Virus record (IMG/VR): IMGVR_UViG_3300044710_000080
Location: 1 to 64,000 of that record
DNA from: a virus
Length of the DNA: 64,000 nt
Direction: 5' to 3' (one strand)
How positions within the stretch are numbered: the stretch's first letter is position 1; the number at the start of each line of letters is the position of its first letter. The notes beneath the pieces were generated by a model, which did not search any database, was not told the origin of the DNA, and saw only the letters and a list, made by a program, of their open reading frames with translations. The position numbers were made by a program, and so were the translations under genes. Of the stretch, positions 17,953 through 53,511 are shown piece after piece.

Positions 17953-18029
17953 GTGATCTCCTCGGCCAAGGCTGGCCATAGGTTGCTACTTGGCTTAAGA
18001 TGCCGCTGCACTGGGGATCGAAAACTGCC

Positions 18030-19842: not shown

Positions 19843-20217
19843 TCAAGAGCCATCCTGGAGGACCGCGACGATCGAACACCAATCCGGCCACTGCTCAATG
19901 ACCCGCGCCGTAAGATACACGTTCCCGTCGGAGAGCGTCAGGAGATCGCCGCCCTTACTCGAGACCCGGATGATCGCGTCAACCTCGCCGTTGAGGTAAA
20001 TCTTGCGCATCGAGCCCTGGAGATTGAGGCCCTCGATCTGGCGCAGGTCGCGGTTCGAAAGGTCTTGGACTTGGGCGGTGACGGTCACAGGCGCCGCATA
20101 GGATGGGGTAGGGGTTCCGTCCAGCGCAATCGTCGAGCCTGTGCTAGTCCGTAGCGTCGCCGCCTGCATGGGGTTGACGGCGGAGATCGGTCCCGAAACG
20201 ATTCCGTGCAGGTTCAC
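19843..20217 (-). CDS. Head closure/head-tail joining protein
   Basis: NLHGIV...AVNP, AQVQ.L, KGGDL, EQWPDW; AAGGAGG RBS with GTG start. Confidence 0.75.
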   Translation of the reverse strand: MNLHGIVSGPISAVNPMQAATLRTSTGSTIALDGTPTPSYAAPVTVTAQVQDLSNRDLRQIEGLNLQGSMRKIYLNGEVDAIIRVSSKGGDLLTLSDGNVYLTARVIEQWPDWCSIVAVLQDGS

Positions 20218-20402
20218 GCGGCCTCCTTGCTGCAATGCAACCAATTTTCAATAGACCGCTCTGGATAGCCCGTAAGATTGGCGATGTCTGTCGTATCGAA
20301 TTTGGCCTCCCGGAACCATAGCCGCACGCGAAACGGCATATCGACCCGCGGCACGTAGAGCGGCTTGAAATTCCTGGAGACAGGAAGATGCACCCAAGCC
20401 AT
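20214..20402 (-). CDS. Small HTH-like protein
   Basis: DTTDIANLTGYPERSIENWL. Confidence 0.45.
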   Translation of the reverse strand: MAWVHLPVSRNFKPLYVPRVDMPFRVRLWFREAKFDTTDIANLTGYPERSIENWLHCSKEAA

Positions 20403-20410
20403 TGCCGCTC

Positions 20411-21928
20411 TCACTCGGCGGCGACCGGCTCCCGGTGCCGCCTGCGAATCACCGTCCGCGTCATCGCCTCGATCTCGGCGCGCCCGCGCTCCCCGAACTT
20501 CCTCCCCACCATAGCAAGATAGGACGGCTCGGTGAAGTATGCAGCGAAGGCGTTGTCCCGGAAGTCGAGGATCTCCCGCGAGGTCAAGGCGGCGGTCGGC
20601 AATGGGACGGCGTCGAAGCTGTGCTGCGAGTAACCGGACCACGTCTCCGGCAGTGGCAGGCCCTTGGCAACCGCCTCTGCGTAGAGTGGCGAGCCGGGAT
20701 AGGCCATCGCGCAATAGAAGTTCGCGAACTCGCACTGCAGCTCCTCGGCGAGGTCATAGGTCTGATTCATCGTTTCCAGCGTATCGTCCGGGAGCCCGAA
20801 GATGAAGTTCCCGATGACGTTGATCCCGGCCGCCTGGATCGCGCGCACCGTCTCGACAATGTCATCGGACTTGAGCGCCTTCTTCGCCCCGTCGCGGACG
20901 TGCTTCGATCCTGACTCGATCCCGAGTGCGAGCCAGCGGATGCCAGCGGCGCGCATCTTGGCGAGTGTGTGCGGTTTGACGGTATCGACGCGGGCATACG
21001 CCCAGATGTTGAGGTCGCGCGCGAATGTAAGCCGAGTGAGGCGCTCGCAGATTTCGCCATAGTGCCGTTCGTTGAGAACGAACATTTCATCGACGATCTT
21101 GAAAGTGCGCACGCCGTGAGTCCGGTAGAGCATTTCGACTTCGGCGCAGACCGCGAGCGGCGAGCGCATCCGATAGCGGTTCGTCTGGAACGGCGCGTTG
21201 ATGCAGCAGAATGAGCATTTGTACGGGCACCCGAGCGTCGTGTAGATCGAGGCGTAGGGCTTCCGTTTCTCTGGCTCCCCGAGCGTTTGCCAGTTGTGAG
21301 CGCGATAGCGATTGACCGGGAGCATATCCCACACGTCGCCGTGCAGTTGCGATAGGTCCTCGATCAGCGGCGCTGATGGGTTGATGATGACCTGCCCTGG
21401 CTTCGGGCCGCGCCAGACGAGGCCAGGAATATCGGCCAGATCAGATCGAGTGAGAACGTACTCATTTTCTTCATTCGATTTGAATAGATGTAGCAGTTCT
21501 TCGATCGTGACCGGCCCCTCGCCGACGCAAGTATAATCGACCGTCTCCTCGACCATCGTCCGCTCTGGCAGCGCCGAGACATGGCCGCCGATCAGGATCA
21601 CCGGGACGCGGCAAACCTGCTTGATGGCGCGGGCGACAGCGCCGGCTCCCGTCATCTGTTGCGTGCTCGCGCTCGGCTGGTGCCCATAGGCGACAATCGC
21701 GCAGAGTCGCGGCTTCCAGAGCGCGACAAGGGAACCCACGTCATGCGGGTCATCCTCGGTCGCCTCCATGTCGAGAATCTTGACCGAATAGCCCCGGTCC
21801 CGAACGTATCCCGCAATCAGGCGGCAAAAGAGCGGCGGCTCGATTGCGGTGAGGTTGCTGCCGAGCGCGCCGTAGATTTCCCGGCCAGCGCTGGGGTGGA
21901 TCAGGAGGAGGTCGAGTTTGTCGGTCAT
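20411..21928 (-). CDS. B12-binding radical SAM enzyme (class B methyltransferase-like)
   Basis: N-terminal cobalamin-binding domain (ILIGGHVSALP..VGEG), GCPYKCSFC, LGIESG, FIFGLP. Confidence 0.9.
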   Translation of the reverse strand: MTDKLDLLLIHPSAGREIYGALGSNLTAIEPPLFCRLIAGYVRDRGYSVKILDMEATEDDPHDVGSLVALWKPRLCAIVAYGHQPSASTQQMTGAGAVARAIKQVCRVPVILIGGHVSALPERTMVEETVDYTCVGEGPVTIEELLHLFKSNEENEYVLTRSDLADIPGLVWRGPKPGQVIINPSAPLIEDLSQLHGDVWDMLPVNRYRAHNWQTLGEPEKRKPYASIYTTLGCPYKCSFCCINAPFQTNRYRMRSPLAVCAEVEMLYRTHGVRTFKIVDEMFVLNERHYGEICERLTRLTFARDLNIWAYARVDTVKPHTLAKMRAAGIRWLALGIESGSKHVRDGAKKALKSDDIVETVRAIQAAGINVIGNFIFGLPDDTLETMNQTYDLAEELQCEFANFYCAMAYPGSPLYAEAVAKGLPLPETWSGYSQHSFDAVPLPTAALTSREILDFRDNAFAAYFTEPSYLAMVGRKFGERGRAEIEAMTRTVIRRRHREPVAAE

Positions 21929-22173
21929 CGGACTTCGCGCCCTTCCGCATCACGGAAAATTGCTGGGTAAGAGTCGTTGCCTTCCGGCCAGCATTCGGGA
22001 CATGGAATCTCGACGGTGGCAGCGCCTTGGGGATCGGTCGGCGCCCTATCAAAATTGGTCGTTGCTCCACAGCCTGGGCATGTCGCCTTTAACGGGATCA
22101 CGATTTCTGCCCTGCTGCGGTCAAATCCGCAGGCGCGGTCGACCATCAGTTCGATTGGGGAAAGCGTCCTCAT
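21925..22173 (-). CDS. Small Zn-ribbon protein
   Basis: CPGC and CPEC; overlaps both neighbours. Confidence 0.55.
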   Translation of the reverse strand: MRTLSPIELMVDRACGFDRSRAEIVIPLKATCPGCGATTNFDRAPTDPQGAATVEIPCPECWPEGNDSYPAIFRDAEGREVR

Positions 22174-22511
22174 GGCACCATCGCCCTCGACTCTTCCCCC
22201 GCCGCGCGCTCGACGTCGGCGTCGTCGTGGTGGGTGGAGAACTCGAAGATGACAGAGTCGCGCAGGCCAGCGAAGCGGTGCCAGGTGCCGGATTCAATAT
22301 CGACCGAGTCTCCCGGCTGCATGATATGGATAGCGCCGTTCAATTCCATGCGAACTTGGCCGGACTGGAGGTAGAACGTCTCATGCTTCACCGGGTGCCG
22401 GTGCAGGCTGCACTGGAAGCCCTTCCGCAGAACCAGCATCTTGCCGCAGTAGGACTCGTTGTTGACTATCCAGCGTTCCTCGCCCCAGACCTTTTTGACG
22501 ATCTTCAGCAT
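22170..22511 (-). CDS. Cupin, sugar isomerase-like
   Basis: KVWGEE, SLHRH..KHETFY, GTWHRF. Confidence 0.8.
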   Translation of the reverse strand: MLKIVKKVWGEERWIVNNESYCGKMLVLRKGFQCSLHRHPVKHETFYLQSGQVRMELNGAIHIMQPGDSVDIESGTWHRFAGLRDSVIFEFSTHHDDADVERAAGEESRAMVP

Positions 22512-22688
22512 CCGGGCTTCCTCAGGTCGGGCGGCCAAAGCCAGAGTGAGATGCGATGCCATGCTCGGCGCCACCATTGCGGCGGCCCTTCAGCATCGAG
22601 CGGCTCTAGTGTTCCGGTCTTGAATTTCACTGATCGCGGGTCGCCGGGAAAGTTGCCGAAATAGGCTCTCGCGGCGGCGATCTCTTCC

Positions 22689-23627
22689 TCAGACGTTCCC
22701 ATTTTGCCCTCGGGGCAGCATCCGCAGTCCGACTATAAGCTCACGGATGCCGTCGTCCAAGGAGAACTGAGGCCGCCAGCGGGTCGCCTCGATCCGGGCG
22801 TTGCTGACCACATAATTCCGCTGGTCGACATCGGCCCCGACCGGAGCATCGAGGAACGTGAATCCCGGGACGTGCACGGCGATCCGCTCGCACAGCTCGC
22901 GCTTGCTGATGTTCGCGTCGGAGAGCCCGACATTGTAGGGCTTGTCCCGCATCGCCTCGAAGTTCTCGATCCCGTAGGCGAACGCCGCCGCCGCGTCCCG
23001 GACGTGCAGGTAGTTCCGCTTGAAGTGGCTCTCGTAAAGCACGACGGCCCGGTCGGTCATCGCCCGGTGCACGAAGTCGTTCACCAAGAGGTCGAGCCGC
23101 ATCCTCGGCGACATGCCGAACAGCGTGGCCAGCCGGAAGCTGATCGCGTTGCCCCGCCCCAGCACAGCCTCCTCGGCGCGCACCTTGGTGACCCCGTAGT
23201 GGCTGATCGGGCGGAGCGGCGAGTCCTCGGTGCACTCGACTCCGGGTTCCCCGATGCCATAGCCGCTGTTCGTGATCGGGATGAGCACGCGCTGGCTGAT
23301 CGACATGCGGTCGAGCGTGTTGCGGATCGCCTCAGTGTTCGTGCTGTGGGCCCCGATGCGGTCGGCCTCGCAGAGCGGTGCGCCGACGAGCGCGGCGAGC
23401 GGAATGAACACATCAGCATTCTTGAGCAATGGCTCGACTACCCGCATGTCCCGGCAGTCACCCCGCACCACGTCGAACGCCTGGTTCGCGCAGAGTGCAT
23501 TGAGAGGCATCTGGTTCCAGAGGAAATTATCGATCACCGTGACGTGGTGCCCTTCCGAAAGCAGGACGCGGACGAGGACACTGCCCAAATATCCCGCCCC
23601 CCCGGAGCAAAGCACACGAAATCCCAT
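22689..23627 (-). CDS. NAD-dependent nucleotide-sugar epimerase/reductase (extended SDR)
   Basis: SGGAGYLGS, YGVTK, FRLATLFG.SPRMRLDLLVN. Confidence 0.9.
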   Translation of the reverse strand: MGFRVLCSGGAGYLGSVLVRVLLSEGHHVTVIDNFLWNQMPLNALCANQAFDVVRGDCRDMRVVEPLLKNADVFIPLAALVGAPLCEADRIGAHSTNTEAIRNTLDRMSISQRVLIPITNSGYGIGEPGVECTEDSPLRPISHYGVTKVRAEEAVLGRGNAISFRLATLFGMSPRMRLDLLVNDFVHRAMTDRAVVLYESHFKRNYLHVRDAAAAFAYGIENFEAMRDKPYNVGLSDANISKRELCERIAVHVPGFTFLDAPVGADVDQRNYVVSNARIEATRWRPQFSLDDGIRELIVGLRMLPRGQNGNV

Positions 23628-23863
23628 CACGGAATCTCCTTCGCGAGAATGCCGAGCAGGCTCTTCGCCAGAATCTCGGCATCCTGCCGACCCATGATGA
23701 CGGCGGTGTGGAAGATGTTCCCCTCCTCCGTCCCAAAGCCCTCGCCGAAAGTGATTCGGACAACCTCCTTCGTCGCACCGACGGTGTGGGTGTTCGTGTA
23801 GATCGGCCGCACTGCGCCCCAAGACGGACGCGACGCGACGTGGCTCCCGCCGTTCCCGTTCAT
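23627..23863 (-). CDS. Small hypothetical protein
   Basis: IYTN..V....VRITFGE; translationally coupled. Confidence 0.5.
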   Translation of the reverse strand: MNGNGGSHVASRPSWGAVRPIYTNTHTVGATKEVVRITFGEGFGTEEGNIFHTAVIMGRQDAEILAKSLLGILAKEIP

Positions 23864-24010
23864 AGACTCACCAGAACTTCACGATGAAGTGGATTATGAC
23901 CCAAGCCACGCCGACCCAGAATGAGACAAATCCGATGCAAAAACCCCAGATGATGATTACGGCAGCGAGATCCTTGGGGACCACCTTCTCGGTGAATGGG
24001 AATGCGCGCC

Positions 24011-25135
24011 TCATAGCGTCCTCCGGATTACCTCGGCCAGCCGCTTGATTAGGTCTGGCGCTGACCAGGGGGGATTCCCGCAGAACATTCCTGTGACGTG
24101 GATTAGATCGGCCTTGGGCGTGGGCTGGTTCGCCCATGGAAGCCCATAGGGAGATTTTGTAAAGCTCCCGCCAGTCGGAAGGCGGCAGTCGATCGAGGCC
24201 GCCCGGAGGGCTCCTACTAGCCGCCGGCGGGCCTCCTGGCCGGCATCCACGGTGAAGTGGAGCGAAAATGGGCTCGGGCTGCCGTTCCAGGGCGGGAAGG
24301 TGACCGGGAGGCTCGCCGCCAGTCGCCGGAACAGGGCGTCATTTTCTCGCCGTGCCTTGATGAAGCCGGGGAGCTTGCGCAGTTGCTCGCGGGCGACCGC
24401 GGCGCGGATTTCGTCGGAGCGGACGTTGAATCCGAAAATTTCAAATCGGTATTCGTCCTCGAACCGCTCCGCAGGCTGAACGTCGCGCAGCCAGCCGTGC
24501 GCTCTCAGCATCCGGCAGAGCCGATTGCATTCGTCGTCGTCGGTCAGCACCGCGCCGCCCTCGATGGCTGATACCTGATGGCTGAAGAAAAAGGATTCTG
24601 TCGCCATCAGCCCGAAGGCACCCGTCGTCTTGCCATTCGTCGAGGCCCCAAGCGATTCGCAGTCGTCGTTGAGGAAGTAGGCGTCGAGCACCCCGGCCAC
24701 CGTGTTCAGCGTCCCGAGCTGTGCCGGATTGCCGAGTATCGAGCAGCCGACCACGAGCCGGATACCGGCCGGATCCTCTAATCCGAACGGGTCGGCGTTC
24801 CAGCCGTCGTCCACATCCATCAGGACAAGATCGAGGCCGTGCTGCACGAGCGGGGCGTAAGTCGTCGCCCACGCGATCGCCGGCACCAGCGCCTTGTCCC
24901 CCCGCTTGAGCGGCTTCTCGGCGCGATGGAACAGCGCCGCCGTCGCCACGAGGTTCGCGCTCGAACCCGAGTTGACCATCACGCAATGCCGGCGGCCGTG
25001 GTAGTCCGCGAGTTCCCGCTCGAATGCCGCGACCTCGGGACCGGCGGTCAACCGCCCGGACGCGAGCACGCGCTCGATGGCCGCGCGCTCCTCGGTAGAC
25101 CACGCGGAAAATGCTGTCGGATGGTCATAGGTCAT
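24011..25135 (-). CDS. colD: PLP/PMP-dependent GDP-4-keto-6-deoxymannose 3-dehydratase (ColD-like, DegT fold)
   Basis: VNSGSSANL, W.TTY.PL.Q.GL, LGNP, DDCESLGA, SFFFSHQVSAIEGG with His at the catalytic Lys position, RAHGW.R. Confidence 0.85.
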   Translation of the reverse strand: MTYDHPTAFSAWSTEERAAIERVLASGRLTAGPEVAAFERELADYHGRRHCVMVNSGSSANLVATAALFHRAEKPLKRGDKALVPAIAWATTYAPLVQHGLDLVLMDVDDGWNADPFGLEDPAGIRLVVGCSILGNPAQLGTLNTVAGVLDAYFLNDDCESLGASTNGKTTGAFGLMATESFFFSHQVSAIEGGAVLTDDDECNRLCRMLRAHGWLRDVQPAERFEDEYRFEIFGFNVRSDEIRAAVAREQLRKLPGFIKARRENDALFRRLAASLPVTFPPWNGSPSPFSLHFTVDAGQEARRRLVGALRAASIDCRLPTGGSFTKSPYGLPWANQPTPKADLIHVTGMFCGNPPWSAPDLIKRLAEVIRRTL

Positions 25136-25663
25136 TTTGTGGCCACCCATCGCCATCGTCCGTTACGGCGCGGCTGAGCACCTCCCATCGATGGCCTATA
25201 CAAACCGGGACGCCCCTTCCGATGACGATGCCAGGCGGAAGTCGGCCACCATGTGCCGCGAACGCGGATCATGCTCATGCGAATGATTCGCTCAACAGAG
25301 TCTCGTTCGCCCGCCGACTGATATGGCGAAGAGCAACTTCGGCTCCCGTGCCGACCTTCGCATGGGGCAATTCTTCATCGGCCAGATCGGCCACGAATTG
25401 GAGCGCCTTCCGCAATCGGCTTACCTCCGCTTGGTATTTTTCCACGCGGGTAACTGCGGAATCTTTGCTGAACCGTTCGACTTCGTTCTCAGTAGTCATA
25501 GTCAAGCCCTCCGTGTCCATTTGCTTCGTCGCACTTGCGCAGCAACCAGCGCCAGAACCATCGCGGCCGGCGGTCGTTCCAGTCCATGCGCTCGGCCAAA
25601 TCCCATAACCGCTTGAAACGCGCATTACGGACGTTGTGGTCAGGTAGCGCGATTCCGTCTCGA

Positions 25664-26182
25664 TTAGGCATAGAGTTCCGTCCTCTCGATCAGCAGCGTG
25701 CTCCCCTCCCGCTGCAGCGCCTTCCCGTACTCCGGCACGATCCGGTCGGCGGAATCAAGCCGGACGACCTCGACGGTTTGCAGCATTGAGCAGAATGCTT
25801 CAGTGAAGTCCCCGAGGTGTTGCGGGCCGGGATCGAGCGGCACCGGAGTTGCGATTGCCGTTCTCACGATAACGCGCGGCCGCCACGTCGAGTATCGCGG
25901 CAGGGCGTCGAGATGCAATACGAGTTGCGACATGGCGAGCAGCAGGAAGTTGACCCGCGGATAGCACGTCACCGGGATCAGCCCCGTCAGCGACATGCCC
26001 GTCGCCATTCCGAGCTGAGCATCCTCCATGACGGGAAGCTCAAGCAGCTTCTCAGGCGCAATGCCGCGGAACGTTTTCGCCATAGCCGTGCCTTCCGTCA
26101 TGGCCTGGCCCATGAAGATCGACCTCGGCTCTTCGGCAATCATCAGCATCGCCGCCCGCAGTGCATCGAAGTAAACGCTCAT
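25664..26182 (-). CDS. ThDP-dependent enzyme, E1-beta/transketolase pyrimidine-binding domain only
   Basis: ELPVMEDAQLGMATGMSL.G..P, PGPQH; only 172 aa. Confidence 0.85.
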   Translation of the reverse strand: MSVYFDALRAAMLMIAEEPRSIFMGQAMTEGTAMAKTFRGIAPEKLLELPVMEDAQLGMATGMSLTGLIPVTCYPRVNFLLLAMSQLVLHLDALPRYSTWRPRVIVRTAIATPVPLDPGPQHLGDFTEAFCSMLQTVEVVRLDSADRIVPEYGKALQREGSTLLIERTELYA

Positions 26183-26277
26183 TCCTCGTCCTCCTCATGG
26201 GGCGCGTAGATTCCCCAGAGCACGAGCATGACGCTCCCGACCGCGAGCACCCCGACGATGGCGAGAACCCCGTACAT
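26179..26277 (-). CDS. 32-aa single-TM peptide
   Basis: MYGVLAIVGVLAVGSVMLVLWGIYAPHEEDEE; overlaps both flanking genes. Confidence 0.45.
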   Translation of the reverse strand: MYGVLAIVGVLAVGSVMLVLWGIYAPHEEDEE

Positions 26278-26879
26278 TAGAAGTCCACACGCTTGCCGGC
26301 GCCCGAATGTGGAAATGGTAAAACGTACTCATAACGCCGAGTTAAACGCGCATCCGACCCTTCGCATCCATCGTCCCAAGTCTTTCGCGTATCGGTGCAA
26401 ACGCTCAAACCGTTATCTTCGACGACGAACGTGATCGGCAGGCAATGCCCGCGCGCATAGTTCCAGCATTCGTGATAGATGCCCGTGCGACTTGTCATGT
26501 CCCCGAGAAAGGCCCAACAGCGCTCATCCTTCCCCGCTCGCTTGATCGCCCATGCGATCCCGAGCGCGATGGGCAGAACCCCGCCGACGATGGCGGATGA
26601 GATCACCCGACGCGCGGGAAAATTCAACGCAATCGAATGGCCTTTCAAAATCGCGGCCCGCAGTTCCTCTGGCGGCACGCCCTTGAGCAAACAGTGGTAG
26701 TGCGACCTCCAAGAAACTGCGCACCAGTCCTGTTCACGCACGTCGGCGAAGATGTCCAGCAAGGCCTGCTCATTGCCGCCGGCCAGATGTATGGGGGACC
26801 GGATGCGTGCCGCATTGAAGTCAGCAGCCACGGATTCCTCAAACGCGCGGAGAGATTCGACAGTGTGGTTCGTGATCAT
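26277..26879 (-). CDS. ThDP-dependent enzyme, E1-alpha-like subunit
   Basis: PIHL..GNE, WRSHYH, SAIVGG, ThDP motif variant GDM...EDN. Confidence 0.85.
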   Translation of the reverse strand: MITNHTVESLRAFEESVAADFNAARIRSPIHLAGGNEQALLDIFADVREQDWCAVSWRSHYHCLLKGVPPEELRAAILKGHSIALNFPARRVISSAIVGGVLPIALGIAWAIKRAGKDERCWAFLGDMTSRTGIYHECWNYARGHCLPITFVVEDNGLSVCTDTRKTWDDGCEGSDARLTRRYEYVLPFPHSGAGKRVDF

Positions 26880-27610
26880 TCGCCGAACACATTCCAATTG
26901 CCAAACTCTTCGATGAGGTCTGCGGAGAAGCAATCAATTTTATGATCGGACCGACCACCATCGAAAGCGGCGAGAGCATTCTTCCCGGTCGCGCGGACGC
27001 CGTTAACGGCGTGGGTCGCCTTCAACCGTCGAAGCTGAACGGCGTCCGGTTCATCCGAGTTCCCATCTCGTATGCGCGTTTCGTTCTGCCAGATGTAGGC
27101 GTTGGCAAGTTGAATCACGACGATTGCCTTAATCTGCTCGGCGCGAAGCGGCGGACGTTCCGCGAGGATCAGATCAATGTCGTGCATGATGAGTTTCAGC
27201 TCGGCGCGGTAGTCATCGCGGTGCTCATCGATGAAAATTTCCTTCTGGAGCACGATGGTGAGGCGGTCGACGAGGTCGCTCAATGTCGGCAAATACTTGC
27301 GCTCGTTACCTGGAAACATCGGGCGCGCCAGAAGGGAACCGAATCCCCATTTGCCGGATGCGTAGGCTTCCCGCGTCTCGGGATCGAACTTGACGCCTTG
27401 GGCTTCCAGCGCCTCAAGAATGAGCTTCTGATGCGCGGGAGAATTTTGCGGCACGTAGGTTCCCCCGTCCGCGCACCGTATCGGGCCGGGCGCCCCACCT
27501 CGTTCGTGCTCGTCGAATCGGAGGCCGCAGCGGGCGCAGATCGGGACCATACTGGAGGGGGAGAGGGGGATGTCGGGGCCGTGGTCGTCGCGGCCGTGCT
27601 GGTCGGTCAT
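26876..27610 (-). CDS. Hypothetical protein with helical C-terminal domain, coupled to E1-alpha
   Basis: YLPTLSDLVDRLTIV..KE...N.YIW.NE..IR; ATGA overlap. Confidence 0.65.
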   Translation of the reverse strand: MTDQHGRDDHGPDIPLSPSSMVPICARCGLRFDEHERGGAPGPIRCADGGTYVPQNSPAHQKLILEALEAQGVKFDPETREAYASGKWGFGSLLARPMFPGNERKYLPTLSDLVDRLTIVLQKEIFIDEHRDDYRAELKLIMHDIDLILAERPPLRAEQIKAIVVIQLANAYIWQNETRIRDGNSDEPDAVQLRRLKATHAVNGVRATGKNALAAFDGGRSDHKIDCFSADLIEEFGNWNVFGE

Positions 27611-27612
27611 GT

Positions 27613-27843
27613 TTATCGCCGTTTCCTTGCGGGCACTTCTTCCGCTGGAGGCTTCACAAGAAGTTGGCGAGCATGCTCACTGAGCGGCTTCAAGTCGGGC
27701 CGGACCTTCATCAGCGCGCTTATGAGTTCGTCGATTTCTTCGCGCGTACAGATTGATCCGCCAAGCACCACAGCGGGGCCGACAGATGTTTCCCCACCTG
27801 GATGCACAAGATTTACCATTTGGGTATGGATGATGTAAGGCAT
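27613..27843 (-). CDS. Hypothetical protein
   Basis: GGAG RBS; first ORF after promoter at 27880. Confidence 0.5.
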   Translation of the reverse strand: MPYIIHTQMVNLVHPGGETSVGPAVVLGGSICTREEIDELISALMKVRPDLKPLSEHARQLLVKPPAEEVPARKRR

Positions 27844-27879
27844 AATGAATCTCCCGGCCGGTTCAGGTTGCCCAATCCG

Positions 27880-27907
27880 ACTATAGGGAAAATTGTCCCG
27901 GTGTCTA
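27880..27907 (-). promoter_or_regulatory. Sigma70-like promoter with operator in spacer
   Basis: TAGACA-16-TATAGT; spacer contains GGGACAATTTTCCC. Confidence 0.7.
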
Positions 27908-28237
27908 GTGGGTAGTGACCGTAGCGGCCTCGGGCTTGACGCCCATACGGTTTTTCTGGGCGGCCTCAACGGCGAGGGCGCGGACGCGGCCGAGCGTGGC
28001 CTCGAAACCGGATTCGGCCCATCCCGGCTTCTGGCGCATGTCGTCCACGATTTCGGCGAAGATGAGCGCGTCGGGCGGGCGCAGGGCGAGCGACCTTCCA
28101 GCGATGCTCTGGTAGACCCTCCATCCGGTGCCGTGGTCGTAGTGGATGCCGACCTGCAACGCCGACCCCGGCGGGGCGGTCGAGATGTGCAGGAGCCAGC
28201 CCTTGATCTGGAGGAGGCGCTTGCGCTTGCCGCTCAT
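27905..28237 (-). CDS. Hypothetical protein
   Basis: High-GC3 ORF abutting neighbours. Confidence 0.5.
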   Translation of the reverse strand: MSGKRKRLLQIKGWLLHISTAPPGSALQVGIHYDHGTGWRVYQSIAGRSLALRPPDALIFAEIVDDMRQKPGWAESGFEATLGRVRALAVEAAQKNRMGVKPEAATVTTH

Positions 28238-28573
28238 TCAGGTCAGGCCTTCGATCTTCCCGTTCGTGACGTGGAAGTGCGCGTTGCATCCGCCGGTGAG
28301 TTGGACCGAACTTGAGCCAGCAACCAGCGTCAGGTCGTCGATCCCGGTCCCGGTCAGGTTCCAGCGCCCCGGTTGCGGCGACACGTCCTGCGGGACTGAG
28401 GGCGACCAGCAAATGACCGAATGCACGCCGATCCCATCTGGATGCCCGAGAAAGCACTTCGGGCAAAGGAACATCACGCCGTCCGCACCCGCAATCACGT
28501 CGCCCACATCTTGAAATGTGTGATGGCTTTCCAGTTTGAGGAACTTCGCCTCTAGCTCGCGGAGTGTCGTCAT
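28238..28573 (-). CDS. Cys/His metal-binding protein (DUF6527-like)
   Basis: FLCPKC..H...W...DLTL..S......C.AHF.V.NG.I. Confidence 0.65.
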   Translation of the reverse strand: MTTLRELEAKFLKLESHHTFQDVGDVIAGADGVMFLCPKCFLGHPDGIGVHSVICWSPSVPQDVSPQPGRWNLTGTGIDDLTLVAGSSSVQLTGGCNAHFHVTNGKIEGLT

Positions 28574-29508
28574 GCCGCCACCGCCTTCTTCACCCGCGCC
28601 GGGTCGAGCACCCCGATATGGTCCAGCGCCCGCCCGACGCAGACCTCGGGCGGGAACTTCGCCTTGAACTTCTCGAATTGCGAGGCCCACACCCCGCGCC
28701 AGGCCGCCCGCACCAGCAGGCATTGGCTGTAGAAGCCCTCGATCGTGTCGGAGAATCGCACAACTTCATCCCATGGCTTCGACAGCAAATGCGGCTCCGC
28801 GACCACCGGGCGCCCAAGGCAGAGCGCCGTGTTACATCGGGACGACGATACAAGGCCCATCGATTCGAACTTCCTCACCTGGATGATGACCTTCGCCCGC
28901 CGCATCGTCTCGTCGCGTTCCTGCTGCGTCGCGAAGTCGACCACCAGCCGCACCGCCTTCTCCGTCCCCACCCGCTTCGCCAGCCGCTTCAAGATCGAGT
29001 GCCGCCGCGGTGTGAGCGACCCGTAGAACCCGAACTCGTAGTCCGGCTCCTTGTCGGTGATGCGCACCAGCGTCGGCGCATACCCGAGCTCGATCGGCGC
29101 CGCCGGCGCGAATTGCCCGTACCACTTCGTCACATGCTCGCCTGGCACCAGATGCAGGATCCCCTCGCAATACTTCGCCGCATCCGGGAACCGCTCCTGC
29201 CGGTAGACCATCTCCCGCTGCGTGCCCTGGTTGAAGCCCCGTTCGCTCGGCTCCTCCGTCGCCAGGATGATCCAGCGCGCGCCTTGCTGCGCCGCATTCG
29301 CTACCAGATTAACGCTGTCCTTCGTGAAGCCTTCGACAATGACGTTGATGCCATCGGCCCCGCTGACAAGTTTGGTATTTGAGGCATCCCATACTGCTTT
29401 GTGGCCCAAGGCATTGATTTGATGGCCGAAAATTGCAATTACGTCCTCAAGAGAACGCTGTCCTACTTCACTGTGGTTACCTAAAAAAAAGCAAAATTGT
29501 TGGCCCAT
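28570..29508 (-). CDS. Putative GT-B glycosyltransferase
   Basis: FGFYGSLTPRR, RDETMRRAKVIIQV, SSSRC..AL..G.PVVAE. Confidence 0.7.
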   Translation of the reverse strand: MGQQFCFFLGNHSEVGQRSLEDVIAIFGHQINALGHKAVWDASNTKLVSGADGINVIVEGFTKDSVNLVANAAQQGARWIILATEEPSERGFNQGTQREMVYRQERFPDAAKYCEGILHLVPGEHVTKWYGQFAPAAPIELGYAPTLVRITDKEPDYEFGFYGSLTPRRHSILKRLAKRVGTEKAVRLVVDFATQQERDETMRRAKVIIQVRKFESMGLVSSSRCNTALCLGRPVVAEPHLLSKPWDEVVRFSDTIEGFYSQCLLVRAAWRGVWASQFEKFKAKFPPEVCVGRALDHIGVLDPARVKKAVAA

Positions 29509-29951
29509 TATTTCACCTCGAAAGCAATAGCATTGATGGTTTCTGAGGTGTGAATCCATGGCTTGTCAAACCCTTTGCGGGCTATCGTCGATGCCTTCAA
29601 CGGTGGGCTCGTGATCGTCGCCACTGATTCGCGAAGCTCGCCGCTGATCTGCTCACCGACCATGGCCATTGCGGGCTTGGCGTCGAAGTCGGTTTGTTTG
29701 AGAGCGGCGGCGACGGCCTCGCCCCACTTCGGGGATTTGGCGGCGATCATGTTGCGAAAGGCGGGCCTGGGCGGCTGGCCGCGCGAGGGCACGCCGTACT
29801 CGGTGAGAGCGGCGCGGAGGGGAATCGACATGCCGTCTGAGCCCGTGGCTCCTTCGAGCCATCCGACCCGGAGGTTTGCGGGCGTGGTGATGTGCTGCGC
29901 GAGCTCGTTCAGCTTTTGCCGCAATTTCTCTCCCCCGCTGATGGTCGCCAT
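29508..29951 (-). CDS. Neck/tail completion protein (HK97 gp10-like)
   Basis: VGWLEGAT, EYG, PPRP.FR, PPL..STIARKGFDKP. Confidence 0.8.
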   Translation of the reverse strand: MATISGGEKLRQKLNELAQHITTPANLRVGWLEGATGSDGMSIPLRAALTEYGVPSRGQPPRPAFRNMIAAKSPKWGEAVAAALKQTDFDAKPAMAMVGEQISGELRESVATITSPPLKASTIARKGFDKPWIHTSETINAIAFEVK

Positions 29952-30386
29952 TTTCAAAACCCCTGGATACCGAGCAAGTGTAGCAGACCGCAGAGGAAGG
30001 CGATGTAGAGAACTTGCCCGAAGGTGAGGTCGAAGAGGAAGATGGCGTCGCTCATCGGGGCATCCGTCCGGCTTTTCTTCCCCGCGTGCCGGACAACGCG
30101 GTTACAAACCTGCGGCGTGAGACAAGTCCAAGGACGCACGGCATCGCTAGATGCTCTCCGCAGGACCGGAAGCTAATTGCGCCTCCACCATAGCCTGATG
30201 CCAGGGCGCAAGTCATGATAGGGGCAGTGGGGTTCATCCTCCAAGACCTCAAACTGTTGGCGCCAGAACTCCATCGCCGCGCGCACGAAAGATACCCGAT
30301 AAAGAACCGATCGATTACGCGACCGCGCCATGCGCCTTGTGATAATCTTGTGTGTTGCCGCCAAATTTATCATCCGAATGACTCGC

Positions 30387-31565
30387 TCATCGCAGCCACG
30401 GCAGCGCCCCTTCCGCCTCCTCCAGAGTCTCGTATCGGACAATGCCCGGCCGGTTGCGGTGCGATGGCGTTGCGAGGTCGAGCGAGCCGAGCCGGTGCGG
30501 CACCACGTAGACCCCGCCATCGTAGGAGACAAGGTTCATTGAGCCGACGGTGGCGAGGAGTTGGGGATTCGTCGGGGGCGCGAAGATGGCCCCTCCCGGC
30601 TTCTCCGTCGGGAGGGGCGCGGTTTTATCGTCGGACCCCTGAGGGCTCGTTCGTAGTCCTCCATGCTGCACCACCTCGCTTCCCTGCTGGAGGCCAATTC
30701 GCTCGAAGACTGAGGTCCAGAACGGCCGCGCGGCGTGCCGCTCGAGCATCTTGCCCCGCATCCGCTCCGCCATTTCGCGGTCGGCGTCGCCACGGGAAGG
30801 GGCGGCCCGGATGATCTGCTCTGCGTGGTCGTCGGAGCCATACTCGAGGAAATCGACCCCGGGCTCGAACCACGTCCGCGCCGGCGAGTCACTCGGCTCG
30901 AGCAGGCAGGCCCCGGCGAGCGAGGCCTCGACGAACCGGCCTTTGACGTGCCGCTTCTGGCCGGTGCCGGTCCGAGCGTCGTTGATGACGATCCGGCAAC
31001 CCGAATAGAAGGCGCAGACCTCCGGGTAGGAAACCCATGCCCCCGGGTTGAGCCATACGAGGCCGCTAGATGCGAGTCGCTGCAGGATGGGGGTCCTAGC
31101 ACCCCCACCCCCGCAAAAACCCGCCAGCGTGCCCCGCTGGGGCCAGGGGAGGGGGTTAAACATGCCGGGATCGACCGGGGTGAGCGCCACAAGGCCGAAA
31201 CGGGCGATCGGGTTCTCCCGGGATCCGTCGATTGCGACCTGGAGGCGGAACGCCCCGGCGCGATCGTATTCCTCGAGGAGCGGCCACCAGGGCGGGTCGG
31301 CGGCGTCGGAGCAGATGTGCACCATCGGCGCCACCCCGTTCGCCCGCCAGAGGGCGTCCGTCGTCGGGATCGGGCACCCGTCCTGGTGCGGCATGCAGGC
31401 GCCGATGTAGACGATGACATCCGGGCGGTGCTGCTCGGCGATAGCGCCAACATCGGCGCCGAAGACGTCATACCGGACGACCGCAGTATCGGGGACAACC
31501 GCCGTGAACGAGCGGACGAGTTTTTCAGTGTCGGGCGTTCTTGTAGTGAGGCAAAGGCCCTTCAT
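30387..31565 (-). CDS. GT-B glycosyltransferase (CgeB-like)
   Basis: CRIVIN...HVKGRFVEASLAGACLLE...WFEPGVDFLEY. Confidence 0.8.
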   Translation of the reverse strand: MKGLCLTTRTPDTEKLVRSFTAVVPDTAVVRYDVFGADVGAIAEQHRPDVIVYIGACMPHQDGCPIPTTDALWRANGVAPMVHICSDAADPPWWPLLEEYDRAGAFRLQVAIDGSRENPIARFGLVALTPVDPGMFNPLPWPQRGTLAGFCGGGGARTPILQRLASSGLVWLNPGAWVSYPEVCAFYSGCRIVINDARTGTGQKRHVKGRFVEASLAGACLLEPSDSPARTWFEPGVDFLEYGSDDHAEQIIRAAPSRGDADREMAERMRGKMLERHAARPFWTSVFERIGLQQGSEVVQHGGLRTSPQGSDDKTAPLPTEKPGGAIFAPPTNPQLLATVGSMNLVSYDGGVYVVPHRLGSLDLATPSHRNRPGIVRYETLEEAEGALPWLR

Positions 31566-31737
31566 GATTTTGCTGCTCGTGTGCGAAGGATGATGTTCAA
31601 TCCTTCATCTGAGCACGCACGTTCCGTGAGATCGTTGTAAAGTACCGCCGCCTCATACTGCGATTTGCAGACGACGGTGAAGTGAACCTCACTCAAAATC
31701 ATCGAAATCCGTCCAGCCTGAAATGAGAATGGTTCGC

Positions 31738-32007
31738 TCATGCCGTCACCTTTATTGCGGGTGGAGGTGGACGAGGCCGAGACCGCAGCGACCGATCTAC
31801 CCAGAGACGCCCCGGTTCTAAGATCAGGAAACCGGGTATAGGCCGAGCCGTAGGCCCTCTCACTTCGCTGAGACGACATTCGCGCATGAGCCCTTTCCGG
31901 ACCAATGCTTCCCCCGTCTGCCAATTGTCAGGCCAACGGTCAATCCACCCCCGCGGTTCGCGAGCAGCGAAATGCAGCATCTCGCGTTGAGGTGCGCTCA
32001 ACCGCAT
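31738..32007 (-). CDS. Small winged-helix-like protein
   Basis: LSAPQREML...TGEALVRKGL...ILEPGR. Confidence 0.4.
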   Translation of the reverse strand: MRLSAPQREMLHFAAREPRGWIDRWPDNWQTGEALVRKGLMRECRLSEVRGPTARPIPGFLILEPGRLWVDRSLRSRPRPPPPAIKVTA

Positions 32008-32549
32008 AGCTCTGCAAACCGTTTGAATGGCACGCCGCCGGGTTCGCGATATTCAGCCCACGGCCAGCGGCGCAGTATCGATTCGTCCTGAGCTCTGAGT
32101 ATCGCGGTACGCTCGCCGTCCGGAGCGAGTGCGAAAATCCACCGATCCTTGACGCTCTCCTGCTGGCCCTCAGACCATGCGCCGTTGCCAGTAGGCGGTG
32201 GACGAAGGCGATGCCAAGTCGGCGCCCACCACCAATTGCAGGCCCGGTAAAGCGTCCCGGTATGGCCTACCGATGGGTCCGAATAGCTGACGATGGTCGT
32301 CGCATCCGGCCGGATGGCGCGCAACGCGCGCACGAACGCCGCCCATTGTCGGCTGCCGTCGTTGCGGATTCCGCGGATAAGGCACCAGCGCACCAGCTCG
32401 AGCCAGTGGCCGGGAAGCCGACGCGCAGTCGGCGATGCAATCACGATGGCGCCGAACTCGTCCCTCCACGCAACACCGCGATCAACTGCGCCGAGATAGT
32501 GGTTCTCGGCGAGCAGTCCAGCGATTGATCGGCAAGAAGTCCAAGTCAT
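31998..32549 (-). CDS. mom: Mom-like (GNAT-fold) DNA modification protein
   Basis: HYLG, ELVRW, IVSYSDPSVGHTGTLYRACNW. Confidence 0.75.
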   Translation of the reverse strand: MTWTSCRSIAGLLAENHYLGAVDRGVAWRDEFGAIVIASPTARRLPGHWLELVRWCLIRGIRNDGSRQWAAFVRALRAIRPDATTIVSYSDPSVGHTGTLYRACNWWWAPTWHRLRPPPTGNGAWSEGQQESVKDRWIFALAPDGERTAILRAQDESILRRWPWAEYREPGGVPFKRFAELCG

Positions 32550-33571
32550 GCCAGCACCTTCATCCCGATCCGCTCCAGCACCTTACCCCAGAACGCGGAG
32601 GGGGAGTGGCGCTCGATGACCTTGCGGCGGAGCGAGAGCGCCATTTTCTGCGCCTCTTCTGGATTCCCTTCAAGCCATTCCAAGCCGCGTCGAATATCGG
32701 AGATTCCTTGATCCGGCCCTTGATAGCAGCGGTAATCTTTGCCCATCTCAAACCACTGACAAGTGGGCGACATTTCATTCTCGAAGAGCACCGCCCCCGC
32801 GAGCGCCGTCTCTATCACCCGCGCCTTGACGTGCATCCGGTCCCCGCTCCCGGTCGCGGCGTGGTTCCAGACGCAACGGCAGGAAGAGAGGAAATCGCGA
32901 TAGCCGGCTTGGCTCGGGTCGGTGTGGTCGCGGTCGCTGATCGTCAGCAGGCCGGCGCCGAGGAGCGAACGGATCGCCGGCGTGCGCGGGTGCAGATAGC
33001 CGCCCGGGGGCGGGTCGCCGAGCTGGTAACTGCCGCGGAAGCCGAGCCGCACCGGCCGCTCCGCCCACGGCCGCGGCGGATCCGGAAACCCGGCGGGGTC
33101 GATCGGGCAGAGCCCCGTCATGCCGAACTCGCCAATCGGCCCATCCCTCACGCCGTCGATGTTGACCTGGAGCGCGAAGCAGCCCGCATCCTGATAGCGC
33201 CGCAGCTGCGGCCACCAGTCGGCCTCCGACCCATCGCAGCACAGGTGCACGAACGGGTGCCGTCGGCCTATCTCGCGGAGCACATCGACATTCGGCATCA
33301 GCGCCCCGCCAGCATCGCAGCAGCCGATCATGAGCACCCAATCCGGCCCCTGCGAATCCACAAGGGCCGGGAGGCGCTCGAAATAGCGATGGTCGGGCAG
33401 AACCTCGATCCCCTCTGCGGAGAATTGCCGCCGGTGCTGCTCGTAATCCCCCGCGTTGTGCACGTTCATGAGGTCATAGACGATGGGCTTGACCTCGTGC
33501 CCGAGGCCGCGCAACGGCTCGTAGATCGGCGGGCAGCTGGTGGAGAATGTCCGGAGGACCGTTACGCGCAT
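32546..33571 (-). CDS. GT-B glycosyltransferase, paralogue of 30387-31565
   Basis: Shared VH.C.D...WWP.L..Y..AG.F.LQV.IDG and HVK.R..E..LAGA.L.E. Confidence 0.8.
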   Translation of the reverse strand: MRVTVLRTFSTSCPPIYEPLRGLGHEVKPIVYDLMNVHNAGDYEQHRRQFSAEGIEVLPDHRYFERLPALVDSQGPDWVLMIGCCDAGGALMPNVDVLREIGRRHPFVHLCCDGSEADWWPQLRRYQDAGCFALQVNIDGVRDGPIGEFGMTGLCPIDPAGFPDPPRPWAERPVRLGFRGSYQLGDPPPGGYLHPRTPAIRSLLGAGLLTISDRDHTDPSQAGYRDFLSSCRCVWNHAATGSGDRMHVKARVIETALAGAVLFENEMSPTCQWFEMGKDYRCYQGPDQGISDIRRGLEWLEGNPEEAQKMALSLRRKVIERHSPSAFWGKVLERIGMKVLA

Positions 33572-33840
33572 CAGCCTGTCCCCGCCCGTTCATGTTCGGG
33601 CGCGCCTTGCTCGCCGCCCCACGTTGGACGCACGCCGGTTTCCTGTTCGATGATGTCGCCGACGGCATCGCGCATTATGTCCATAAACGCTTGCTTGCGA
33701 ACCGGATGATCGCGCACGAACGCCATCGCGATCGATCCGAGCCAAAGCGCCCCCTCCATAGTATCTGGCATCGCGTAGTAGGCGTTCCAGTTGTTGCCCT
33801 CTACGCGCAACGAAAGACGACCAATCTGCTGTTTTTTCAT
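33571..33840 (-). CDS. Hypothetical phage protein
   Basis: GRLSLRVEG..WNAYYA; coupled to neighbours. Confidence 0.6.
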   Translation of the reverse strand: MKKQQIGRLSLRVEGNNWNAYYAMPDTMEGALWLGSIAMAFVRDHPVRKQAFMDIMRDAVGDIIEQETGVRPTWGGEQGAPEHERAGTG

Positions 33841-34613
33841 TGCGGCTTCCCCTTCCAGATCGTCCGCGCCCCGGCCGGCAGCATGTCGAGCGGGACATCA
33901 ACGTTGAACCCGCGCAGACTCGTCACGTCATAGCCCGCCCCGTACCGATTCGCCCACCGGGAGAGGAAGAGGGCCATGTCGGCCGCCGTCGTATGGGCTT
34001 CCCCAATCCAGTCAGCACCGCCGCTCAATACTGGCATCTTCCGAGCGTCGTCGGCCAGTACCCGCACCAGCGGCTCGCGCGACCACTCACACCGCCCGCC
34101 CGCGCTCCATACCCGCATCCCGAGATCGCAGTCCGCGAAGCCGACCCGATAGTCCCCAGTGAGCCAGAGGCCACGCGCAGCGTCGCGTCGGCGCATCAGC
34201 GGGAAGTAGGGATAGTAGTTGCCGAAGACGGTCCCGATTCGCAGCGTAAAGGCTTGGCGCAGCCCGAGGCAGAATGGCGATGGCGGGCCGCCTCGGTCTG
34301 CAAACGCGAACTCCCGCGCGAGAAAATTGTCGAGCGCAATCTCATCCCATCCCGGCACGAACTCGTGGTCGTCGACCCAGGCGAGGACGAAGTCACCAGT
34401 CGTCTTTCGCAGCGCAGCCTCATGCGCGGCATTAGCGCCTTCCGAGTCGCCCTCCTTTATCCAGACGACGCGGACGCGCCGGTCGAACTTGAGTGCCGGC
34501 TCGTAAGGGGAAACGACGATGATCTCGACATTGTCGTGCACCGTCGCTCGGATATTGTCGAGCGCGCGCTCCAGCGCGGGCGGGTGCAGGGAAGGGAGGG
34601 TGATCGAGATCAT
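33837..34613 (-). CDS. GT-A (family 2-like) glycosyltransferase
   Basis: ISITLPS, EIIVV, G.NAA, GDFVLAWVDD, FADCDLGMR. Confidence 0.85.
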   Translation of the reverse strand: MISITLPSLHPPALERALDNIRATVHDNVEIIVVSPYEPALKFDRRVRVVWIKEGDSEGANAAHEAALRKTTGDFVLAWVDDHEFVPGWDEIALDNFLAREFAFADRGGPPSPFCLGLRQAFTLRIGTVFGNYYPYFPLMRRRDAARGLWLTGDYRVGFADCDLGMRVWSAGGRCEWSREPLVRVLADDARKMPVLSGGADWIGEAHTTAADMALFLSRWANRYGAGYDVTSLRGFNVDVPLDMLPAGARTIWKGKPQ

Positions 34614-34616
34614 CGC

Positions 34617-34760
34617 TCAGCCCAGCGTCGGAGGTCCGGGCAGAATGCCTATTTCTTCGAGCCATATGGTGAAGGCCAAAAGGCCAAAGCTGCAGAGCAA
34701 TATGCTACCCACGAATAGAATGGAGAACAGCAGCGGATGGGCATCTTGAAAGCAGATCAT
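34617..34760 (-). CDS. Small membrane protein
   Basis: AGGAGG RBS; single hydrophobic helix; first ORF after promoter. Confidence 0.5.
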   Translation of the reverse strand: MICFQDAHPLLFSILFVGSILLCSFGLLAFTIWLEEIGILPGPPTLG

Positions 34761-34784
34761 GAGATTTAACCTCCTGATCCGCCG

Positions 34785-34813
34785 ATCATAAGGGAAAATC
34801 GTCCCCGTGTCTA
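34785..34813 (-). promoter_or_regulatory. Sigma70-like promoter with operator in spacer
   Basis: TAGACA-17-TATGAT; spacer contains GGGACGATTTTCCC. Confidence 0.75.
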
Positions 34814-53482: not shown

Positions 53483-53511
53483 TTGCATTTGGGGACGATT
53501 TTCCCTACTTT
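53483..53511 (+). promoter_or_regulatory. Sigma70-like promoter with operator in spacer
   Basis: TTGCAT-17-TACTTT; GGGACGATTTTCCC. Confidence 0.7.

Follow-up and report, generated by a model that had tools for sequence, protein, structure and literature searches.

Which molecule receives the sugar when a phage keeps a sugar-nucleotide pathway and four glycosyltransferases (GTs) between the genes that complete its head? The question is raised by the viral genome IMGVR_UViG_3300044710_000080 of IMG/VR, a complete record of 75,025 bp. Its first 64 kb form the window, i.e. the whole stretch of DNA that was analysed initially. Two inserts separate the head-tail adaptor, neck and head closure genes of this virus, and their sugar-related genes are referred to as the island. 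From the letters of the window alone, a first-pass annotation had proposed that the phage makes its own unusual sugar and builds an oligosaccharide on virion proteins in the cytoplasm. The first half of this proposal is now supported, as a coherent enzyme pathway is encoded together with four soluble GTs. For the second half, we give a virion protein as acceptor a probability of roughly 0.45. This reading is drawn from the translational coupling of the island to head-completion genes, the conserved position of a GT family nearly confined to phages, the precedent of mycobacteriophages and the lack of membrane machinery.

The island within the head-completion module

The adaptor and neck genes are 4854 bases apart and the neck and head closure genes 9264 bases, and the inserted genes are all co-oriented. 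In two cultured relatives, the phages RCIP0114 of Klebsiella and Orimi01 of Pseudomonas, the five small genes between capsid and sheath are contiguous and occupy ~2.2 kb. The adaptor, neck and head closure genes are also contiguous in most of 80 neck-centred IMG/VR loci as well as in prophages of Mesorhizobium and Methylobacterium. The two gaps are therefore real insertions. The module had been described as split by two co-oriented inserts of about 4.9 and 9.3 kb, and this description holds with all three flanking genes anchored by PHROG matches. The enzymes named at that stage were likewise all recovered, namely one GT-A, three GT-B, a ColD-like enzyme, the alpha and beta subunits of a thiamine diphosphate (ThDP) enzyme, a short-chain dehydrogenase/reductase (SDR), a cupin and a B12-binding radical S-adenosylmethionine (SAM) enzyme.

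Two overlaps tie the island to the head-completion operon. The stop codon of the neck gene overlaps the start codon of the core GT gene (TAATG), and the stop codon of a 62-aa open reading frame (ORF) overlaps the probable GTG start of the head closure gene (GTGA). A strong promoter-like site heads each of the two units. A GGGA-N6-TCCC dyad occurs in 8 copies compared to 1.7 expected, and six of the copies read GGGAC(A/G)ATTTTCCC or a close variant of it. Dyads are positioned at 27886, 34792, 48200 and 52921 in minus-strand sense and at 53492 and 62589 in plus-strand sense. At 27886 and 34792, where the flanks were read, the dyad is located inside the spacer of good -35/-10 pairs. Among the units behind dyad copies are terS-terL-portal, the gene of the DNA transglycosylase DpdA and both the GT and the sugar unit. 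In the model that we propose, the two inserts would constitute one glycosylation system that is transcribed as two units. Each would have a sigma-70-like promoter of its own, and the start/stop overlaps would join them to the neck and head closure genes.

A search of related genomes for linkage of the cluster to head-completion genes, as suggested by the first-pass annotation, found this linkage again, in rearranged form, in many phages and in a distant myovirus (L122). Other viral contigs carry the island as well, with proteins that are 45-67% identical, and its genes are interleaved with those for adaptor, neck and head closure in varying orders (L004, L005, L007/L021, L058 and L071). The complete 73-kb genome to which locus L071 belongs carries a minimal form without a PF13524 or GT2 gene. 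There, the order is neck, core GT, a 244-aa protein, ThDP alpha, ThDP beta, dehydratase, SDR, radical SAM enzyme and head closure. A metagenome scan returned fragments only, and the collection of cultured phages gave neither a DNA match nor a match to the GT proteins.

The core GT belongs to a family of more than 532 homologues (58-88% identity) that has neither a Pfam domain nor a name. It adjoins head-completion genes in 24 of 32 viral loci, and its gene directly follows the neck gene in 17 of the 32. In seven loci (L098-L100, L107, L111, L117 and L119), it is the sole recognised sugar-related gene, packed between neck and head closure. L122 likewise has it upstream of the sheath gene, with capsid-side genes on its other side; the structural proteins of this myovirus have no similarity to those of the window at the threshold used. 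The position is constant among proteins that are 44-88% identical and is found again in a second lineage of myoviruses. A pattern scan of 185,579 species genomes yielded no relative of the core GT, and among 401 sampled Alphaproteobacteria a distant one (24-27% identity) was present in a single genome. Judging from these searches, the family is almost confined to phages.

Head-completion junctions might also be permissive landing sites for cassettes, with GTs that act on another acceptor such as a small molecule or a host protein. The same junctions house other accessory genes, i.e. the Mom-like gene and homologues of the gene for a 259-aa protein (35286-36065), and the DpdA gene is inserted at another structural-gene junction. 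In addition, the best fold neighbours of the GTs include small-molecule GTs, namely tetrahydrobiopterin glucosyltransferase, BshA and SenB. Random landing would, however, leave the constant position of one phage-specific GT family over this range of identities and in a second lineage unexplained, and we regard this explanation as very unlikely.

A predicted branched higher-carbon sugar

ColD is the closest solved relative of the dehydratase, which aligns with 2gms over its full length (residues 8-377). The catalytic His188 of ColD aligns with a His of the phage enzyme (SHQVSAIEGG compared to SHHIATMEGG in ColD), in the column where aminotransferases carry the Schiff-base Lys and in which the H188N mutant entry 3b8x differs. 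The SDR aligned over 304 residues with the PDB entries 6vo6 and 6vo8 (1.1e-101, 343 bits) and, on this match, is probably something other than a generic epimerase. We take 6vo6 to be the guanosine diphosphate (GDP)-heptose C4-dehydrogenase Cj1427 of Campylobacter, an unconfirmed assignment; the entry name is generic. The ThDP pair contains the GDM...EDNG ThDP motif, and its genes adjoin the dehydratase gene in all phage and bacterial loci examined. Homologues of the 244-aa protein with 52-61% identity adjoin ThDP alpha in L004, L007, L071, L096, L097, L101 and L116. HpnJ was the top NCBIfam match of the radical SAM enzyme (2e-46). For the cupin, no counterpart was found in related phage loci.

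A close orthologue of the radical SAM enzyme was detected in 17 of the 401 sampled Alphaproteobacteria (~4%). Six of the operons were examined (genomes G397, G102, G215, G157, G175 and G088; L141-L146). In all six, the SDR and the dehydratase accompany it, together with an HddA-like kinase and both subunits, alpha and beta, of a full-length ThDP enzyme; five also contain an HddC-like transferase. In these operons, the radical SAM enzyme is 49-61% and the SDR 59-64% identical to the phage protein, and a range of 57-62% was likewise obtained for bacterial orthologues of the radical SAM enzyme. Two of the related phage loci, L006 and L008, encode a GHMP kinase and nucleotidyltransferases with HddA, HddC and RfaE domain II as top NCBIfam matches, those to HddA and HddC being below the curated cut-offs. 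Given the match of the SDR to 6vo6 and the HddA/HddC-like genes in the bacterial operons and in related phage loci, the substrate of the pathway is probably GDP-heptose and not a 6-deoxyhexose. No HddA or HddC homologue was found in this phage genome, and the phage would depend on a GDP-sugar of its host. A 3,6-dideoxyhexose is probably not the product because no 4,6-dehydratase is present.

We infer the following order of steps. The SDR would oxidise C4 and the ColD-type enzyme would then strip the C3 hydroxyl. In Campylobacter, the step of Cj1427 followed by a pyridoxal 5'-phosphate (PLP)-dependent C3-dehydratase gives GDP-3-deoxy-4-keto-heptose (PMC10680097). The minimal ThDP alpha/beta pair would add a pyruvate-derived two-carbon unit at C4, the position at which the E1 alpha/beta-like pairs of paulomycose and eurekanate formation attach such a chain to 4-keto-deoxysugars (PMC4802897). 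Finally, the B12 radical SAM enzyme would methylate or rearrange the product, which is most likely a 3-deoxy, C4-branched heptose derivative. Whatever the target may be, the combination of a C4-dehydrogenase, a 3-dehydratase, a ThDP pair and a B12 radical SAM enzyme with HddA/HddC predicts a new branched higher-carbon sugar. To our knowledge, this five-enzyme core with HddA/HddC represents an uncharacterised bacterial pathway.

In its chemistry, the island is closest to the Campylobacter heptose pathway combined with C2 branching of the paulomycose and yersiniose type. It shares the two presumed first steps with the capsular heptose pathway of Campylobacter jejuni, having an SDR near 6vo6 and a ColD-type dehydratase with the catalytic His, and HddA/HddC-like genes are found with the pathway genes in bacteria and related phage loci. 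In Campylobacter (Cj1427 and the HS:5 PLP C3-dehydratase), epimerases and C4-reductases then lead to capsule heptoses that are plain or 3-deoxy (PMC10680097), whereas the island has a ThDP pair and a B12 radical SAM enzyme instead, in the neck operon of a phage. ThDP-dependent C2 transfer from pyruvate to C4 of nucleoside diphosphate (NDP)-4-keto-deoxysugars occurs in the formation of yersiniose (YerE), paulomycose (Plm8/Plm9) and eurekanate (AviB1/AviB2), and in the Plm and Avi cases the enzyme is an E1 alpha/beta-like pair, as in the island (PMC4802897). The phage subunits differ in being shorter (~200 and 172 aa) and in lacking the transketolase C-terminal domain. The substrate is also probably GDP-linked and heptose-derived, and neither an antibiotic aglycone nor an O-antigen would serve as acceptor in the proposed system.

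Glycosyltransferases and candidate acceptors

The GT-like ORFs do model as GT folds, with AlphaFold2 (AF2) in the case of two GT-Bs and with an ESM Atlas model in the case of the GT-A. The GT-A contains a DDH motif and reached TM-scores of 0.70-0.76 to ten clusters, all with PF00535; homologues with 41-44% identity are encoded in L004, L005 and L007. The two PF13524 GT-Bs are paralogues. The one at 32546-33571 has a 55% identical homologue in L004, and the one at 30387-31565 was modelled with a mean predicted local distance difference test score (pLDDT) of 86.8. The model aligned with 9v0l (Z 20.4, root-mean-square deviation (rmsd) 3.2, 271 residues aligned), and a Z of 19.8 was measured against the alpha-glucosyltransferase (AGT) of T4, 1y8z (rmsd 3.6, 284 aligned). 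Residues 296-392 of this protein comprise a disordered linker and then a small three-strand beta domain (335-392). Both are common to its three closest relatives only, the others having ~300 aa.

No Pfam match and no PDB sequence match was obtained for the core GT, and PDB sequence searches with the GT proteins in general gave no matches. The model is a compact GT4-like GT-B that aligned with 5zes (Z 19.5, rmsd 3.8, 276 aligned; VIA-align), T4 AGT (Z 17.9, rmsd 3.8, 285 aligned) and SdgB (Z 17.1). Its best BFVD matches are giant-virus GTs including mimivirus L138, with 9-16% identity. R212/K213 and E238/H240 are invariant across 40 homologues, which fits an enzyme predicted to be an active transferase. 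A homology of the core GT to the PF13524 GTs at the sequence level was considered and rejected (hhalign E 0.16), the fold alone being common to them. A hydropathy scan detected no hydrophobic segment in any of the four GTs, and within the 75 kb no coding-like ORF had more than three (hydropathy scan only; no family search was made). This agrees with the first-pass annotation, which saw no transmembrane helices in the GTs and no flippase, polymerase or GtrAB in the window.

According to the proposed model, the core GT would transfer the pathway sugar to the acceptor, and the GT-A and both PF13524 GT-Bs of the first unit would extend or vary the glycan. The most likely acceptor would be a virion protein, or several, synthesised in the cytoplasm over the same period, resulting in a glycan coat on the particle. 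For this working model, the closest known system is the virion glycosylation of mycobacteriophages, where tandem soluble phage GTs modify virion proteins in the cytoplasm (PMC11600133, PMC12582341). The likeness to these phages (Corndog-type of Cluster O and others) consists of phage GTs encoded with virion genes and the idea of a glycan coat on capsid and tail. They are siphoviruses of Actinobacteria with other GT families and no reported sugar-nucleotide tailoring pathway, whereas the island belongs to a myovirus that has prophages of Rhizobiales-type Alphaproteobacteria as relatives. In concept, the model also resembles the self-glycosylation of giant viruses (mimivirus fibrils, chloroviruses), which encode a rare-sugar pathway and GTs (PMC9614988). 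These viruses differ in their eukaryotic hosts and in their sugars, and the likeness of the core GT to their enzymes is one of fold only.

If true, a coat of rare sugar would possibly mimic host surface glycans or mask the particle against them. It is a tentative idea, at somewhat less than even odds, that a lineage of myoviruses with Gram-negative, Rhizobiales-type hosts fixed a phage-specific GT-B between the neck and head closure genes, that some members captured a bacterial pathway turning GDP-heptose into a 3-deoxy, C4-branched sugar modified by the radical SAM enzyme, and that the virion is coated with this sugar in the cytoplasm. With the particle as target, self-encoded sugar synthesis combined with virion glycosylation would be seen for the first time in phages of Gram-negative bacteria, and a family of more than 500 phage-specific transferases with a defined gene position would be available. 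We know of no documented virion glycosylation in phages of Gram-negative bacteria, nor of one together with a phage-borne rare-sugar pathway. Virion glycosylation of mycobacteriophages weakens the neutralising-antibody response, and a glycosylated particle would have a bearing on phage stability, adsorption and immune recognition.

Several points weigh against a virion protein as acceptor. None of the tests identified an acceptor, and the fold neighbours of the two modelled GT-Bs comprise DNA, protein, lipid and small-molecule GTs with tied Z scores. GT4-like enzymes often use lipid-linked acceptors without having transmembrane helices of their own, and three small minus-strand ORFs of 47-61 aa within the inserts contain one hydrophobic segment each (34617-34760, ~23868-24011 and 29954-30139). 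GT2 genes, a methyltransferase or an ABC-transporter ATPase border the operons of the bacteria, and their sugar looks like a component of cell-surface glycans. The unconfirmed relation of the SDR to Cj1427 belongs to this list as well, as does the Mom-like gene within insert 1. DpdA has DNA as substrate and is encoded in the head module, so location in a virion operon is not specific to a virion-directed function. What stands of the original virion-glycosylation proposal is the sugar pathway, the GTs, the operon wiring and the fact that no known route to an acceptor hydroxyl on DNA bases was found, while its positional argument has been weakened by DpdA.

Part of this list would fit a remodelling of the host envelope. 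The soluble GTs would in this case add the sugar to lipid-linked O-antigen, capsule or lipopolysaccharide-core intermediates at the inner membrane face and leave completion to the export machinery of the host. The cell surface would be changed, and superinfection or the loss of progeny on debris, for example, might be stopped. Consistent with this are the flanking genes of the bacterial operons, the three small ORFs with a hydrophobic segment, the inserts' own sigma-70-like promoters and the GT4-like fold neighbours PimA, PglA, TarM and WbnH, which act at membranes. Furthermore, distant relatives of the phage GT families were found in five of the 401 genomes, and four of the five are among the 17 pathway carriers (chance ~1.6e-5, relatedness ignored). 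The GT families thus appear to go with the sugar of the pathway. In G157, the neighbours of the cellular GT relatives were uninformative. A link to flagellin glycosylation was rejected: one operon lies near fliF, but no contig with the GT relatives carries the flagellin genes.

On the other hand, no tyrosine integrase was found in the genome, and with no ORF above three transmembrane segments there is no candidate for Wzx, Wzy or GtrB. The core GT is moreover coupled to the neck gene, stands as the only recognised sugar gene in seven loci and belongs to a family nearly missing from bacterial genomes. The membrane GT, flippase and polymerase candidates of Gtr/Wzx/Wzy seroconversion modules, all polytopic, were not found in the island genome by the hydropathy scan. 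Altogether, envelope remodelling is considered unlikely.

The GTs could instead glycosylate a modified base of the phage DNA late in infection, before packaging. T4 AGT is among the tied top fold neighbours of both modelled GT-Bs, the Mom-like gene lies in insert 1, and the DpdA gene, located between the portal gene and a MuF-like head gene, is behind the same promoter type as the island. The phage probably puts 7-deazaguanine into its DNA using preQ0 of the host; no QueC/D/E genes were found among the ORFs scanned. DNA-glycosylating clusters can sit among structural genes (10.1101/2023.12.21.572611) and can include sugar-nucleotide genes (10.1101/2023.12.21.572611; PMC13326640). Hypermodification by group transfer takes place late and before packaging (PMC13326640). 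The island shares a compact soluble phage GT-B with the T4 alpha/beta-glucosyltransferases and with clusters for the glycosylation of 5-hydroxymethylcytosine or 5-hydroxycytosine (5hmC/5hoC). Unlike in these systems, no enzyme that would provide the acceptor hydroxyl was found here or in the related complete genomes tested.

The absence of a base hydroxymethylase, noted before for the window, agrees with the family searches. Neither a thymidylate-synthase homologue (PF00303) nor a C5-methylase (PF00145) is present in this genome, and Tet/JBP (PF12851) was not found in a search that had no positive control. PF00303 is absent from the four complete core-GT genomes tested for it (G003-G006) and PF12851 from all seven complete ones, again without a positive control; C5-methylases were detected in G006 only. 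In the assessment of Pyle et al., an action on DNA is less likely for GT contigs that lack ThyS or 5mYOX. DpdA was rejected as a partner of the island as it is absent from three complete island-carrying genomes (G003-G005), where the positive control worked. A homologue of the Mom-like protein was found neither in L004, L005 and L007 nor in the other loci, and the gene is not a conserved member of the island. Glycosylation of DNA is distinctly unlikely in view of these results. The island is outside both the known DNA-glycosylation and the Gtr/Wzx/Wzy seroconversion systems, as a defining feature of each was looked for and not found.

Returning to virion proteins as acceptors, two candidates deserve mention. 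The 259-aa protein is encoded by a third insertion in the module, between a capsid-proximal gene and the adaptor gene and outside the island proper. It has no Pfam or PHROG match; its Atlas clusters are phage-only, with weak leads to DUF5907/Mtd_N. In L005, a homologue is encoded within the sugar cluster; in L023 and L080, the homologues occupy the interval from neck to head closure. The product may be a neck or head fibre and is a candidate acceptor.

The second candidate is a Ser/Thr/Gly-rich domain of ~65 aa that is present in five copies, namely twice in the cement protein and once each in the sheath, the tail terminator and the baseplate wedge. Its pattern is ...GTxxTVTxxxxGxxxxGxxVxGxGVxxxTxIxxxxTGxxGGTGTYxV... 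The domain was found in 48 of the 80 neck-centred relatives, six of which have any island gene, and it is present in the Mesorhizobium and Methylobacterium prophages, which lack any GT. In a set of 30 near-complete genomes, GT and domain occurred together in six, the domain without GT in 10 and neither in 14, and none had the GT without the domain. The nominal p of 0.013 for this association is not independent evidence, as the genomes without the domain belong to a clade of their own and are mostly proviruses, with sizes of 44-60 kb (46-49 kb in most cases). As a dedicated acceptor, the domain was rejected due to its wide distribution without island genes or GT. It may still be one acceptor among others, and nothing ties it to the island.

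Virus type, host and further features

PHROG and Pfam matches were obtained for a major head protein, cement protein, head protease, MuF-like protein and portal as well as for the tail sheath, terminator, tape measure and baseplate wedge, and the virus is therefore a myovirus. The minus strand carries the genes from ~2 to 52 kb, the structural and packaging genes included. The capsid protein is 38-48% identical to that of cultured Aeromonas, Klebsiella, Pseudomonas and Acinetobacter phages and 57-60% identical to that of prophages in Mesorhizobium and Methylobacterium genomes. From the latter values, the host is probably an alphaproteobacterium of Rhizobiales type. A 127-bp exact repeat is located at the genome ends (1-127 and 74899-75025). 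It looks like an assembler overlap, for which a length of 127 is typical (k-mer 127), and may not be a physical repeat; by this overlap, the assembly was probably circular. The coordinates of the module and of related genes are listed in Table 1.

Table 1. Features of the head-completion module, the two inserts and related genes (window coordinates).
Feature	Position	Strand	Evidence or remark
Head closure protein	19843-20244	-	phrog_1912, 1.4e-35
62-aa ORF	20214-20402	-	GTGA overlap with head closure
B12-binding radical SAM enzyme	20411-21928	-	PF02310 and PF04055; CPYKCSFC motif
Cupin, candidate sugar epimerase or isomerase	22170-22577	-	PF07883, 47.8 bits
SDR, probable GDP-sugar C4-dehydrogenase	22689-23630	-	PF01370; PDB 6vo6
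ColD-type PLP/PMP (pyridoxamine 5'-phosphate) sugar 3-dehydratase	24011-25156	-	ColD 2gms, 1.6e-67
ThDP enzyme, short E1-beta-like (Pyr domain) subunit	25664-26182	-	PF02779, 34.6 bits
ThDP enzyme, short E1-alpha-like subunit	26277-26879	-	PF00676, 59 bits; TIGR03182, 1.1e-23
Conserved 244-aa protein, no family	26876-27610	-	travels with the ThDP pair
Promoter-like site TAGACA-16-TATAGT, GGGACAATTTTCCC in spacer	27880-27907	-	heads the sugar operon
Two genes, 111 and 110 aa	27905-28573	-	G+C at third codon positions (GC3) 0.67 and 0.89; weak DUF6527 match only
Core GT-B glycosyltransferase	28570-29508	-	fold only; AF2 pLDDT 93.6, predicted TM-score (pTM) 0.90
Neck / tail-completion protein	29508-29957	-	phrog_222, 2e-32
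61-aa ORF, one hydrophobic segment	29954-30139	-	hydropathy scan
GT-B glycosyltransferase	30387-31565	-	PF13524, 46.4 bits
Mom-like (GNAT-related) protein	31998-32549	-	PF25680, 46.8 bits
GT-B glycosyltransferase	32546-33571	-	PF13524 only, 34.6 bits
89-aa protein, no family	33571-33840	-	coding-like GC3
GT-A (GT2-like) glycosyltransferase	33837-34613	-	PF00535, 22.7 bits, below cut-off 23.3
47-aa candidate peptide ORF, single transmembrane segment	34617-34760	-	behind GGAGG site
Promoter-like site TAGACA-17-TATGAT, GGGACGATTTTCCC in spacer	34785-34813	-	10/12 consensus matches; heads insert 1
Head-tail adaptor	34811-35272	-	phrog_302, 3.9e-23
Accessory 259-aa phage-only protein, Gly/Ser/Thr-rich	35286-36065	-	weak fibre-like leads
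DpdA-family DNA transglycosylase	47101-47877	-	PF23859, 4e-21
Genes with 65-aa domain	37910-38851, 16162-17979, 18608-19345, 8834-10297	-	PHROG matches, no Pfam family

Further observations concern the packaging side of the genome. A gene similar to homing endonucleases, with GIY-YIG and NUMOD3 (51240-51911, minus strand), is located between the gene in small-terminase position and the large-terminase-like gene. DpdA is followed by a weak MazG-like ORF (45230-45580, minus strand). Between 42960 and 45200, the G+C content falls to 0.55-0.57 compared to ~0.62, and this stretch, which contains short ORFs only, separates the MuF-like gene from the DpdA cassette.

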